The notes beneath the pieces were generated by a model, which was not told the DNA's origin, did not search any database, and was given only the letters and a program-made list of their open reading frames with translations. From assembly GCA_016708565.1 (NCBI GenBank), contig JADJFN010000001.1, positions 348,863-412,862 of the forward strand: a stretch of 64,000 nucleotides of DNA, in the 5' to 3' direction. Below, piece by piece: positions 32,113-39,222 of this stretch (position 1 is its first letter; each line of letters begins with the position of its first letter). Source of the stretch: Myxococcales bacterium. Its GTDB lineage: Bacteria > Myxococcota_A > Polyangia > Haliangiales > Haliangiaceae. Made by a program: the position numbers and the translations under genes.

Positions 32113-33072
32113 TCAGCGCATGAACGTGCGCCGCACCAGGTCGACCGCGCGTGGCCCGAGGGTCTCGCCGCGCCACGCCAGCGCGCGCGACACCACCAGC
32201 GCCTTGTCGGCCGGGTTGATCCGCGGCCGATCGGCGAACAGGCGCGGGCCGGCCGCGGCGATCTTGTCGAGGATGCGCATGCCGCCGTGCCACATCAGCG
32301 CCAGCTCGACCGCGAGGTCGGGGCCGACCACGTCGACCAGCGGGCGGGCGCGCTCGAACAGCGCCCGGGTGCGCGCCACCTCGTAGCGGACCAGCGCGCC
32401 GACCTGCGGCGTCGTGCGCCGGGCCTCGACGTCGGCCTCGCTGACGCCGAAGTGGCGCAGGTCCTCCTGCGGCACGTAGATCCGGCCCCGGGCGAGGTCG
32501 GCCGGCATGTCCTGGATCAGCCGCGCGAACGCCAGCCCGGTCGCCAGGTCGGCGGCGAACGCGTGCAGCTCGGGGGCGCGGTAGCCGCCGATGTACAACA
32601 GCAGGTGCCCGACCGGCTCGGCGGCCTCGCGGGTGTAGGCGCGCAGGTCGTTCCAGGTCGGGTAGCGCAGCGTCTCGAGATCGGTCCGGAACCCGGACAC
32701 CAGCTTGACGAACTCGGTGATCGGCAGGGCCAGCGACTTGATCGTCGCGGCCAGCGCGACGAACACCGGGTGCTCGGGCGGCTTGCCGAAGTAGGTCTGG
32801 TGCAGCAGCTCCTCCCAGCGATCGAGCTCGCGCGCGCGCCGGCCCTCGTAGGCCGGCTCGTCGGCGAAGTCGTCGGCGACCCGCGCGAACGCGAAGATCG
32901 CGAAGATGTGCTGGCGCAGGTTCGAGCGCGCGAAGATCGACGCCACCGGGAAGTTGTGGTGGTGGGCGCGGCACAGCGCCTCGCAGTAGCGGTAACAGGC
33001 GCCGACCTCGAGCGAGGGCGGCAGCGGGACGGCTTGGGCGGTGGCGCGGCGGTCGCCGATGCGGTGGATCAC
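32113..33072 (-). CDS. Squalene/phytoene synthase family enzyme (head-to-head isoprenoid synthase; HpnC/HpnD or CrtB-like).
   Basis: YRYCEALCRAHHHNFPVASIF...FARVADDFADE (the first Asp-rich motif) and the overall family pattern. The GTG start at 33070-33072 overlaps the TGA of the HMGR gene (GTGA). Confidence 0.7.
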   Translation of the reverse strand: MIHRIGDRRATAQAVPLPPSLEVGACYRYCEALCRAHHHNFPVASIFARSNLRQHIFAIFAFARVADDFADEPAYEGRRARELDRWEELLHQTYFGKPPEHPVFVALAATIKSLALPITEFVKLVSGFRTDLETLRYPTWNDLRAYTREAAEPVGHLLLYIGGYRAPELHAFAADLATGLAFARLIQDMPADLARGRIYVPQEDLRHFGVSEADVEARRTTPQVGALVRYEVARTRALFERARPLVDVVGPDLAVELALMWHGGMRILDKIAAAGPRLFADRPRINPADKALVVSRALAWRGETLGPRAVDLVRRTFMR

Positions 33073-34364
33073 GGAGCGGGCTCCTGGGGGGACGACGCCA
33101 ACGTAGCACCCTTCAACCCGGCCAGGACCTCGGCGGCGGTGGTGGGGCGCAGGTCGCCCGCCGCCACCAGCTCGGCCGCCACCGCGTCGATCAGGTCGCC
33201 CTCGGCGCCGGCGGCGCGCGCGACCGCGCGGGCGTGCAGCGCCATGTGGCCGCGCTGGATGCCGTCGGTGGCCAGCGCCCGCAGCGCGGCCAGGTTGCAG
33301 GCCAGGCCGGCGGCGCCGGCCAAAGACGCCAGCCGCGGGGCGGCGCTGACGCCGGCCAGCTTGAGCGCGGCCCGGGCGCCGCGGTGGACGTGGAGCGCGC
33401 CGCCGACGGTGCCGACCGCCAGCGGCAGCTCGAGGCGGCCGCTGAGGTGGCCGCCGTCGACCCGCCAGGTGGCCAGCGGCGCGTAGCGGCCGTCGCGGGC
33501 GGCCCAGGCGTGGGCGCCGGCCTCGACCGCGCGCCAGTCCTGGCCGGTGGCGACCAGCACGGCGTCGACGCCGTTCATGATGCCCTTGTTGTGGGTGGCG
33601 GCGCGGTAGCGGTCGTGCTCGGCGAAGCGCGACGCCGCGGCCACCCCGGCCGCGACCGCCGCGCCGTCGGTGCGGGCGTCGGCCAGCGCCGCCAGCGGCA
33701 CCGCGCAGGTCACCGTGACGGTGCGCTGGTCGGTCAGGTTGGTGAGGATGCGCAGCCCGACCACGCCGTCGACCAGCGCCGCGACCTCGGGCGCCAGCAG
33801 CTCGCACAGCGTGTTGACCAGGTTGGCGCCCATCGCGTCCTTGCAGTCGACGTCGACGTGCACGACGACGACGCCGCCGTCGACGCCGCCGTCGGCGAGC
33901 ATCCGCGCGGTCACCGCCAGCGGGCCGCCGCCGCGGGCCACCAGCCGCGGCGTCAGCGCTCGGGCCCGGGCCACCAGCGCCGGGGCCTCGCGCTCGATCC
34001 GGGCCGCGGCGGCGCCGGCGTCGGCCAGCTGCACCAGCTGGATCTGGCCGGTGACGATGGCGGGCGCGACCACCGTGGTGAAGCCGCCGCCGGCGCGGGC
34101 CATGCGCGCGGCGTTGGACGCCGCCGCGACGATCGACGGCTCCTCGACCGCCATCGGCACCAGCGCGTCGACGCCGTCGACGGTGAAGTTGGTCGCCACC
34201 GCCAGCGGCAGCGCGTAGCGGCCGACGACGTTCTCGATCATCCCGGCGGCGTCGGCCAGCGAGATGCCGCCGTCGAGGTCGGCGAGGTCGACGCCGGCGT
34301 CGGCGAGGTGCTGGCGGCGCTCGTCGACAGACTTGCCGTGGAAGCCGGGCAGGCGGGAGGTCAC
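33069..34364 (-). CDS. hmgA: Hydroxymethylglutaryl-CoA reductase (HMGR).
   Basis: RLPGFHGKSVDERRQHL..., ENVVGRYALPLAVATNFTVDG, DAMGANLVNT and HNKGIMNGVDAVLVATGQDWRAVEAGAHA are HMGR-type motifs. The start is taken as a GTG at 34364, 11 nt downstream of the PMK stop codon and preceded by an AAGG. The listed ORF start at 34436 would overlap the PMK gene. Confidence 0.8.
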   Translation of the reverse strand: MTSRLPGFHGKSVDERRQHLADAGVDLADLDGGISLADAAGMIENVVGRYALPLAVATNFTVDGVDALVPMAVEEPSIVAAASNAARMARAGGGFTTVVAPAIVTGQIQLVQLADAGAAAARIEREAPALVARARALTPRLVARGGGPLAVTARMLADGGVDGGVVVVHVDVDCKDAMGANLVNTLCELLAPEVAALVDGVVGLRILTNLTDQRTVTVTCAVPLAALADARTDGAAVAAGVAAASRFAEHDRYRAATHNKGIMNGVDAVLVATGQDWRAVEAGAHAWAARDGRYAPLATWRVDGGHLSGRLELPLAVGTVGGALHVHRGARAALKLAGVSAAPRLASLAGAAGLACNLAALRALATDGIQRGHMALHARAVARAAGAEGDLIDAVAAELVAAGDLRPTTAAEVLAGLKGATLASSPQEPAP

Positions 34365-34375
34365 GCGGCCGGACC

Positions 34376-38287: not shown

Positions 38288-38340
38288 CGCCGGTTTCTAG
38301 CACGCTGCCGCCCCGCCGGCGGCCGGGCGCCGGCCGCGCG

Positions 38341-39222
38341 TCAATACACCATCAACAGCACCAGCGCGCCGAACGCCAGGCCGTTGAGCAAGAACAGCGG
38401 GTCGCGCAGCATCGCGTCGGTGGGGCTGTCCTCGCCGGCCTTGCGCAGCGCCAGGTCGGCGAAGCGCAGGATGCCGACGGCGCCGAGCGGCGCGGTCCAC
38501 ACCAGGTTGCGGGTGCCGAAGAAGCGGATGGTGTGCGCGTCGAGCGTGTACGCGACGTACGCGCCGATCGTCGCCAGCGCCAGCACGATCATCGACCACT
38601 GCACCGCCGTCGGGTGGTAGCCGGCCAGCGCCGCGCGGGTGGTGCCGACGTCGCGGCCGGCCAGCTTGGCGCGGGCCAGCTCGTGGGCGCGCTTGCCCAG
38701 CCCCAGGAACATCGCCAGCAGCCCGGTGCACGCCAGCAGCCACGGCGACGGCGCGACGCCGATGGCCGCGCCGCCGGCCATGACCCGCAGGATGAACCCG
38801 GCGGCGATCAAGATGACGTCGACGAACGCCACCTGCTTGAGCTTGAAGCTGTAGGCCAGGTTCTGCGCGAGGTACACGCCGGCCCACACCCCCGCCATCG
38901 GCGCCAGCGCGAACGCGGTGCCGAGGCCGGCCAGCGCCAGCACCGCCGCGACCACCAGCGCCGCGCGCTCGCCGAGGTGCCCCGCGGCGATCGGCCGCTT
39001 GCACTTGGTCGGGTGCGCGCGATCGGCGGCCACGTCGAGCACGTCGTTGAACGCGTAGACCGCGCCGGCCAGGGCGCAGAACGCCGCCACCGCCAGCGCG
39101 GCGCGCAGCGCGTAGTGCCCGTCCGCGAGGTGCTTGGCGAACACCAGCGGCGCGGCCACGAACACGTTCTTCACCCACTGGTGTGGGCGGAGCGTCTTGA
39201 GGACTGCGCGGGCCGGGCTCAT
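38341..39222 (-). CDS. UbiA-family prenyltransferase (decaprenyl-phosphate phosphoribosyltransferase-like).
   Basis: LKTLRPHQWVKNVFVAAPLVFA...FNDVLDVAADRAHPTKCKRPIAAG. It is polytopic and membrane-like. The start is taken as the ATG at 39220-39222. The ORF start at 39279 is the alternative. Confidence 0.7.
   Translation of the reverse strand: MSPARAVLKTLRPHQWVKNVFVAAPLVFAKHLADGHYALRAALAVAAFCALAGAVYAFNDVLDVAADRAHPTKCKRPIAAGHLGERAALVVAAVLALAGLGTAFALAPMAGVWAGVYLAQNLAYSFKLKQVAFVDVILIAAGFILRVMAGGAAIGVAPSPWLLACTGLLAMFLGLGKRAHELARAKLAGRDVGTTRAALAGYHPTAVQWSMIVLALATIGAYVAYTLDAHTIRFFGTRNLVWTAPLGAVGILRFADLALRKAGEDSPTDAMLRDPLFLLNGLAFGALVLLMVY

Follow-up and report, generated by a model that had tools for sequence, protein, structure and literature searches.

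A likely general mevalonate operon ending in an hpnC-type gene, beside a phosphoribosyltransferase-like UbiA gene, in a Myxococcales bacterium

We analyzed a 64,000-nucleotide stretch of contig JADJFN010000001.1 from a Myxococcales bacterium (the whole stretch is called the window here), in which an initial annotation had described seven isoprenoid genes as a single operon for a dedicated terpenoid product. We consider it probable that the locus is instead a six-gene general mevalonate operon carrying a leftover hpnC gene, next to a gene for a UbiA-superfamily protein of the DPPR-synthase type that stands outside the operon. The main value of the work is corrective: an apparent dedicated terpenoid cluster is most likely a general mevalonate operon with an unrelated neighbor. 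The seven genes, whose products are given in amino acids (aa), are as follows.

38341-39222, minus strand, UbiA-superfamily gene, 293 aa
37199-38287, minus strand, IDI-2 (IDI-2/Fni), first gene of the six-gene core, 362 aa
36279-37202, minus strand, mevalonate kinase (MVK), 307 aa
35290-36282, minus strand, diphosphomevalonate decarboxylase (MVD), 330 aa
34376-35293, minus strand, phosphomevalonate kinase (PMK), 305 aa
33069-34364, minus strand, HMG-CoA reductase (HMGR), 431 aa
32113-33072, minus strand, HpnC-type synthase (SQS_PSY), 319 aa

Gene limits were set from the open reading frame (ORF) listing and start-codon mapping; the window has ~75% G+C throughout. All seven genes lie on the minus strand with outer limits at exactly 32113-39222, as first described, and the same seven product lengths occur in independent public gene calls, on identical metagenome contigs found through the exact IDI-2 protein sequence. 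Gene calling by codon usage put the start of UbiA at 39174; we rejected this start, since homology to Mycobacterium tuberculosis Rv3806c (see below) needs residues R12 and K18 and the public calls give 39222. Start/stop overlaps of 4 nt join IDI-2 to MVK (GTGA), MVK to MVD (ATGA), MVD to PMK (GTGA), and HMGR to the synthase gene (GTGA). PMK ends in TAA and is followed by an 11-nt spacer, so that the HMGR GTG begins at the 12th nucleotide after the stop, in agreement with the initial annotation. Its count of five overlaps among the six junctions has to be lowered to four: a 53-nt spacer separates UbiA, whose TGA ends at 38341, from IDI-2, whose ATG is at 38287. The IDI-2 ORF cannot extend further in the 5' direction because there is an in-frame stop (TAG) 9 nt upstream of this ATG.

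A scan with the synthase, at one genome per species, yielded 187 relatives. Nearly all of the 80 best, which we examined, come from metagenome-assembled genomes (MAGs) of Kofleriaceae, Haliangiales, or Myxococcales, and one shares 99% identity over the synthase and ~94% at the DNA level; we accordingly place the window in a Kofleriaceae genome (Myxococcota, Polyangia/Haliangiales). Homologs of the seven proteins and their neighbors were mapped onto 83 related loci, and five loci were anchored on UbiA. Counting informative loci, most of which had been chosen by HpnC similarity, HMGR was directly followed by hpnC in 70 of 72, PMK by HMGR in 57 of 61, and IDI-2 by MVK in 43 of 44, while UbiA adjoined IDI-2 in only 25 of 40. 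At the other 15, a different gene (for example a LysR regulator) precedes IDI-2, or UbiA is kilobases away, absent, or inverted (the last at L010 and L097). The five UbiA-anchored loci matched the pattern of the synthase-anchored ones. Where genes have been inserted into the operon in relatives, they are functionally unrelated to it, comprising only lipoproteins, one short-chain dehydrogenase/reductase (SDR) gene, and IS200-like transposases.

The last 20 nt before IDI-2 contain a conserved A-rich element, found in the variants TGCTAGAAA, TGCTACAAC, and TGGTAAAGA and mostly positioned 6-7 nt from the start codon. Its form in the window is given here.

38294-38302, minus strand, extended -10-like element TGCTAGAAA, lying 6 nt before the ATG of IDI-2

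A TAnnnn hexamer 5-9 nt before the IDI-2 start was present in 36 of 46 relatives regardless of the upstream gene, whereas the counts were 2 of 46 for MVK and 0 of 30 for DctM; chance expectation is ~8%. Because the motif is retained whatever gene lies upstream and is rare in the controls, we infer that the mevalonate genes probably have their own promoter immediately before the IDI-2 start codon and that their transcript would be leaderless or nearly so. The UbiA/IDI-2 spacer showed no unusual RNA structure (z = +0.76). Given this spacer with its promoter-like element, and UbiA/IDI-2 adjacency in only 25 of the 40 loci, the best-supported conserved unit consists of six genes, IDI2-MVK-MVD-PMK-HMGR-HpnC. 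Tight junctions that are also kept in relatives characterize this core and not the seven genes as a whole, so the seven-gene operon originally proposed is reduced by one gene, UbiA, which tracks the adjacent TRAP transporter genes described below. A second A-rich hexamer (34373-34378), 7-8 nt before the HMGR start, includes the PMK stop codon, which is TAA or TAG (TAAGGT here, TAGAAA or TAAACA in relatives); the other operon genes end in TGA. It could be an internal -10-like element or just a stop codon and spacer, and was left out of the promoter count because it overlaps the PMK stop.

Families were assigned with Pfam and NCBIfam models at curated cut-offs, given here in bits. IDI-2 scored 362.5 on TIGR02151 (cut-off 281.3), MVK 199.7 on TIGR00549 (cut-off 163.05) with both GHMP N and C domains present, MVD 250.9 on TIGR01240 (cut-off 171.35), and HMGR 335.8 on TIGR00532 (cut-off 259.95), a class II assignment shared by its matches to class II reductases in the PDB (E ~1e-103). 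Class II HMGR is biosynthetic in many bacteria (PMC13001223 table). We also considered MVD as a phosphomevalonate decarboxylase of the alternative pathway and rejected it, since NF040704 gave only 182 against 475. The PMK was harder to place: as a single sequence its best family was TIGR01220, at 95.7 well below the cut-off of 165.7, and its PDB matches were ambiguous. A profile of 14 orthologs matched Lin0012 (3k17), which we take to be the Listeria PMK (mvaK2), at 132.8 bits, versus ~76 bits for mevalonate kinases. From this preference, and because MVK and diphosphomevalonate decarboxylase lie on either side, it is a reasonable call that the fifth gene encodes a divergent PMK of the GHMP, ERG8/MvaK2 type. 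The assignments first made for IDI-2, MVK, MVD, HMGR, and the squalene/phytoene-synthase-like enzyme stand, that of PMK is supported by the profile test, and no model moved the GHMP kinases or the synthase to another family.

With these activities, the six-gene operon would convert HMG-CoA to mevalonate and then to isopentenyl diphosphate (IPP) and to dimethylallyl diphosphate (DMAPP). Pfam scans of all 45 called genes found no HMG-CoA synthase or thiolase in the operon, as the initial annotation had noted, or elsewhere in the window. An mvaS gene and a thiolase gene at other sites probably provide the HMG-CoA, as they do in Myxococcus xanthus, where mvaS sits in the alternative isovaleryl-CoA biosynthesis (AIB) operon because HMG-CoA is also the branch point to isovaleryl-CoA, and thiolase lies elsewhere (PMC5389471). 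That arrangement would account for the absence of both genes here.

The last gene of the operon encodes an HpnC-type, hydroxysqualene-synthase-like enzyme, as judged from family models, structural relatives, and a tree. The protein matches Pfam SQS_PSY (E 6.7e-60) and scores 242.4 bits on the HpnC model TIGR03464, narrowly missing the cut-off of 250.45, and 169.8 bits on the HpnD model, 72 bits under the HpnC model; NCBIfam models gave no eukaryote-type Sqs signal. Orthologs at ~74% identity carry the NCBI name HpnC, and the best solved relative is the Alicyclobacillus HpnC 4hd1 (39% identity, E 4e-51). We built a neighbor-joining tree from 293 columns and 16 sequences with 200 bootstraps (bipartitions), using as references annotated HpnC/HpnD pairs taken from the hopanoid clusters of Cupriavidus, Streptomyces, and Roseomonas, a Deinococcus CrtB, and CrtM. 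The Kofleriaceae synthase clade and the four HpnC references were split from HpnD, CrtM, and CrtB with 99.5% bootstrap. Both Asp-rich motifs are intact (DDFAD and QDMPAD) and align with the HpnC references, the second in the Q-D form typical of HpnC.

In characterized systems, HpnD makes presqualene diphosphate, HpnC converts it to hydroxysqualene, and HpnE reduces this to squalene; as a rule their genes sit together in a single unit (PMC7306690, PMC9907078). By analogy, the window HpnC would convert presqualene diphosphate to hydroxysqualene. No HpnD or HpnE homologs were found within 10 kb of hpnC in 84 Kofleriaceae loci or in the 64-kb window. The link to a squalene-type product proposed at the outset holds for the origin of the gene, which belongs to the HpnC clade and whose syntenic operon continues into HpnD-HpnE in relatives. 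A lone head-to-head synthase able to make the product is not supported: in characterized systems, HpnC catalyzes just the second of three steps, and the window contains neither of its partners.

An exhaustive search over representatives added more distant relatives of the synthase, at 40-51% identity. A canonical hopanoid cluster contains one of them (L103: ispH, shc, hpnA, hpnG, hpnC, hpnD, hpnE, hpnH), and another lies beside a carotenoid cluster (L100); in three lineages, the HpnC relative stands at the end of the same mevalonate operon. The first of these lineages (L104-L106) has the order IDI2-MVK-MVD-PMK-HMGR-HpnC-HpnD-HpnE (3783-12348 in L104), with HpnC, HpnD, and HpnE at 323, 309.5, and 432.5 bits, all above cut-off. 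Its operon is followed by genes for RarA, PilZ, an SBP5 protein, and a peptidase S13, which also flank the Kofleriaceae operon in L086 and L099, and relatives of its HpnD are named Polyangia or Myxococcales. The second lineage (L102, 3628-11839) has a mevalonate operon with a good HpnD, an HpnC without the second Asp motif, and a decayed, 318-aa HpnE remnant (54.9 bits). The third, a MAG of 51% G+C (L101), keeps the order IDI2-MVK-MVD-PMK-HMGR-HpnC-like; its HpnC-like gene (10001-10912) has lost the first Asp-rich motif (ADSVLT) and reaches only 120 bits on the HpnC model.

Since the L104-L106 operon is intact at a syntenic locus with shared flanks, the simplest reading is that an ancestral eight-gene operon led from HMG-CoA to squalene and that Kofleriaceae deleted hpnD and hpnE at this locus, although the direction of change is inferred. 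The terminal HpnC would then be a remnant of an MVA-hpnC-hpnD-hpnE operon that is still intact in related Polyangia. Either the HpnC partners are encoded elsewhere in the genome or HpnC functions independently of them. In the window, a plus-strand signaling block (23584-30919) separates hpnC from the RarA/PilZ pair. It comprises an 87-aa ORF and genes for HDOD and FIST proteins, for a hybrid histidine kinase with Hpt, and for a response regulator (RR)-PAS-GGDEF-EAL protein; in relatives such as L086 and L099, RarA directly follows HpnC.

The alternative that fares best takes the second course: hpnD and hpnE were lost genome-wide in Kofleriaceae, and HpnC either condenses head-to-head alone or makes another product from farnesyl diphosphate (FPP) or another prenyl diphosphate, a natural case of HpnC working without HpnD or HpnE. 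The lack of HpnD and HpnE within 10 kb in 84 loci and in the window fits this proposal, and so does the state of the gene, which is intact with both Asp-rich motifs, translationally coupled to HMGR, and as conserved as IDI-2. Its median identity to the window copy, 72.7%, is the highest of the six genes, and in loci not selected on HpnC the values (69%, 80%, and 73%) are level with IDI-2. Kofleriaceae hpnC is not decaying and is under evident constraint, whereas HpnC-like genes at this locus in other lineages have lost a motif (L101 and L102), showing that relaxed copies do decay. Characterized HpnC, in work by Pan et al. from 2015, reportedly does not use FPP directly, which speaks against independent action. 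Rare, taxon-restricted HpnC-only patterns and possible independent roles appear in the literature (PMC7306690). On the other side, the negative result for HpnD and HpnE covers the 10-kb flanks and the 64-kb window, and related myxobacteria have hpnC, hpnD, and hpnE dispersed or clustered, elsewhere in the genome in Nannocystis (PMC10152446) and as hpnCDE clusters in Haliangium, Enhygromyxa, and Plesiocystis (PMC6226438). Two further comparisons do not bear on the question: a search seeded with Polyangia HpnD returned matches all of at least 64% identity, none Kofleriaceae-named, and is uninformative since a Kofleriaceae ortholog is expected near 50%, and positions that discriminate HpnC from HpnD offered only four usable columns. 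We regard an independent HpnC as doubtful and prefer the remnant of the eight-gene operon.

The UbiA-superfamily protein is most likely a PRPP:polyprenyl-phosphate 5-phosphoribosyltransferase, similar to DPPR synthase, and not an enzyme that prenylates terpenoid or aromatic acceptors. Among NCBIfam models it scores best on three decaprenyl-phosphate phosphoribosyltransferase equivalogs, of which the top one, NF008977, gives 230.8 bits and narrowly misses its cut-off of 234, whereas every true prenyltransferase subfamily scored at most 60 bits. Its only relatives in the PDB are cryo-EM structures of M. tuberculosis Rv3806c (8j8j; E 1.9e-34, 39% identity over 273 aligned residues). Structure and mutagenesis have identified the Rv3806c residues for PRPP, Mg2+, and lipid phosphate as R22, K28, Y70, N73, D77, K87, R90, Y138, and K143 (PMC10994848), and all nine are conserved in the window protein. 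Y157 is replaced by F, as in some mycobacteria, and K208 and the trimer-interface residues are not conserved. These models, the homology to Rv3806c, and the nine residues argue for polyprenyl phosphate as the phosphoribose acceptor, and the reading as a UbiA prenyltransferase with a prenylated acceptor is not supported. The enzyme is predicted to move 5-phosphoribose from PRPP to polyprenyl phosphate, giving a lipid-linked pentofuranose donor.

The closest annotated homologs, on plasmids and with 34-40% identity, are DPPR synthases that adjoin either FAD-oxidoreductase and SDR genes (DprE1/E2-like) or HAD phosphatase and GtrA genes, neighborhoods that fit three-component pentofuranose glycosylation systems (PMC11127046). 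Phosphatase, epimerase, flippase, and GT-C partners were absent from the window and from the annotated flanks of relatives, and present beside homologs in L095 and L096. The genes upstream of UbiA in the window belong to a TRAP transporter.

43359-44252, minus strand, TatT, Pfam TAtT
42337-43359, minus strand, DctP, Pfam DctP
41171-41743, minus strand, DctQ, Pfam DctQ
39292-41169, minus strand, DctM, Pfam DctM

TatT matches Treponema pallidum Tp0956 and E. salina 8g52 distantly (E 5e-9 and 5e-5). DctM adjoins UbiA in every informative locus, including L022 and L094, where UbiA has no adjacent mevalonate gene. By synteny, UbiA belongs with the TatT-TRAP genes and is a frequent neighbor, not a conserved member, of the mevalonate core. 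We know of no description of a linkage between a UbiA-type enzyme and TatT-TRAP genes. DctM itself has a tail of ~190 aa beyond the transporter domain (39292-39870), made up of a Cys-containing segment, DEDTEDTDTEDT acidic repeats, and GSGTGSGT repeats; the DctM proteins of relatives are also long, at 617-695 aa.

It is also conceivable, although we think it unlikely, that the TatT-TRAP genes, the phosphoribosyltransferase, and the mevalonate/HpnC genes act together, for example to make and traffic an envelope lipid based on a polyprenyl or triterpenoid unit. Throughout the family one meets the order TatT-DctP-DctQ-DctM-UbiA-IDI2...HpnC, which persists even at a locus that has lost UbiA (L021), TatT-family proteins bind lipids (palmitate for E. 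salina TatT, sterols for BstC; PMC11713862), and the polyprenyl phosphate used by UbiA derives from IPP. However, the association is seen within one family only, where inheritance of gene order would suffice as an explanation, and it is broken in L086, L094, L022, L101, L102, and L104. The absence of nearby phosphatase, epimerase, flippase, or GT-C partners likewise argues against joint function.

Dedicated mevalonate clusters next to terpenoid genes are known in Streptomyces. Following the dedicated product of the initial annotation, the present locus could be read as one specialized-terpenoid cluster whose mevalonate genes supply nothing else and whose UbiA enzyme acts either by prenylating an acceptor or by modifying the compound from the head-to-head synthase. 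The appeal of this reading lies in seven co-directional genes with short gaps and in a UbiA gene that stands beside IDI-2 in 25 of 40 informative relatives. At the remaining 15, as described, it does not, and it stays with DctM when the mevalonate genes are elsewhere; the protein has the PRPP-binding residues of Rv3806c and prefers DPPR synthase models (231 bits) to prenyltransferase models (at most 60 bits). No cyclase, tailoring enzyme, or polyprenyl synthase was found in the 64-kb window. Aerobic myxobacteria are reported to depend on the mevalonate pathway, which they use in place of MEP, and anaerobic deltaproteobacteria to carry only the methylerythritol phosphate (MEP) pathway (Hoshino and Gaucher, PMC8237579). 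We consider a dedicated cluster quite improbable. Because the mevalonate pathway is reported for aerobic myxobacteria, the operon is syntenic family-wide, cyclase and tailoring genes are missing, and the insertions in relatives are unrelated, we favor housekeeping isoprenoid supply with a truncated squalene branch, and the operon most likely provides the general isoprenoid supply of the cell. The idea of a dedicated product would be right only in that the ancestral operon was extended toward squalene. A degradative HMGR in a cluster for mevalonate catabolism, suggested by the name ("degradative") of the best model TIGR00532 and by closeness to the P. mevalonii enzyme 1qax, is scarcely credible, since the gene is flanked by MVK, PMK, MVD, and IDI-2 running toward IPP, Pfam and NCBIfam scans found no HMG-CoA lyase, and class II HMGR is biosynthetic in many bacteria.

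Several points weigh against our account of a general mevalonate operon with an hpnC remnant and a separate UbiA gene. The housekeeping role draws on literature about other myxobacteria, and the synteny counts are biased toward the window arrangement because the loci were mostly selected on HpnC. Only short gaps separate the seven genes and the four TRAP genes, which all run in one direction, and read-through may co-transcribe UbiA with the mevalonate genes in this genome. A generic sigma-70 consensus scan reported no promoter, and the element described above comes from motif comparison. Both the HpnC and the DPPR synthase assignments fall just short of their curated cut-offs, the HpnC tree is a small neighbor-joining tree of 16 sequences, and the squalene role suggested for the window HpnC comes with no partner gene found nearby.

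The locus is a variant of well-known systems, and its points of note are the orphan conserved hpnC and the constant pairing of TatT-TRAP genes with the phosphoribosyltransferase gene. It shares IDI-2, MVK, MVD, a probable ERG8-type PMK, and a class II HMGR with the classical mevalonate operons of bacteria (mvaK1-mvaD-mvaK2-fni of Gram-positive cocci, and that of M. xanthus), as well as tight overlaps and, as in M. xanthus, HMG-CoA synthase and thiolase probably encoded outside the operon (PMC5389471). It differs from them in opening with IDI-2 and closing with HMGR coupled to an HpnC-type synthase, and in a PMK so divergent that it falls under the curated cut-off. With the HpnCDE squalene pathway (TIGR03464, TIGR03465, and TIGR03467), it has in common the HpnC clade, both Asp-rich motifs, and, at the Polyangia locus, the series hpnC-hpnD-hpnE. 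Unlike in HpnCDE hopanoid clusters, the window hpnC stands by itself, the 64 kb containing neither hpnD nor hpnE nor a cyclase gene. It is joined to a mevalonate operon in place of hopanoid genes, and its score is slightly under the cut-off of the HpnC model.

The UbiA protein resembles Rv3806c and the polyprenyl phosphoribose synthases of pentofuranose systems (PMC11127046) in its 39% full-length identity, nine conserved residues, size, and UbiA fold family. In contrast to those systems, no phosphatase, DprE1/DprE2-type epimerase, flippase, or GT-C gene is near it, and a TatT-type TRAP transporter is found instead. That transporter has TatT, DctP, DctQ, and DctM in one co-directional cluster, like TRAP transporters associated with tetratricopeptide repeat (TPR) proteins (T. 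pallidum Tp0956-0958 and E. salina TatT), but its TatT is only distantly related and its DctM has the extra C-terminal tail of ~190 aa. The eight-gene MVA-hpnCDE operon bears on how myxobacteria assembled their mevalonate-plus-squalene route and so on the bacterial origins of sterol synthesis, and the lone, constrained hpnC of Kofleriaceae offers a natural test of HpnC acting without HpnD and HpnE.

Two perfect GC-rich hairpins follow the operon.

32059-32106, minus strand, perfect GC hairpins of 9 bp and 10 bp in tandem, immediately past the HpnC stop

The pair has a fold energy of -43.2 kcal/mol (z = -1.9), a weak signal given that 7 of 200 shuffles folded as well, and is possibly a terminator lacking a U-tract. 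A generic terminator scan returned chance-level candidates only, none at the operon ends, and scans of the whole window with Rfam (gathering thresholds) and for tRNAs found nothing. A decayed, non-autonomous insertion sequence (IS) of 1,029 bp occupies 31016-32044, 58 nt past the HpnC stop; the contig L001, elsewhere 99.9-100% identical to the window, lacks it. Its terminal inverted repeats (CTGACCATTG/CAATGGTCAG) and its target-site duplication (GTCCTGGGGG; flanking repeats at 31006-31015 and 32045-32054) are each 10 bp long and perfect, and it contains a stop-riddled remnant of an IS4-type transposase (IHWRLLTN...RWRVEEFH).

Three other regions of the window drew attention. On the minus strand at 3-4774 are two consecutive genes with bacterial alpha-2-macroglobulin domains (Big_5, MG2, and bMG3, then A2M_BRD and A2M), which may be one gene split by a stop, a frameshift, or gene calling. 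Three tandem genes on the plus strand at 6306-15339 encode ClpB-like double-AAA+ proteins (1133, 1122, and 756 aa) whose long N-terminal parts had no family match. Also on the plus strand, at 54691-57305, two adjacent genes, each for a FadL/TodX-like outer-membrane transporter, precede a gene for a 483-aa protein without a family match.

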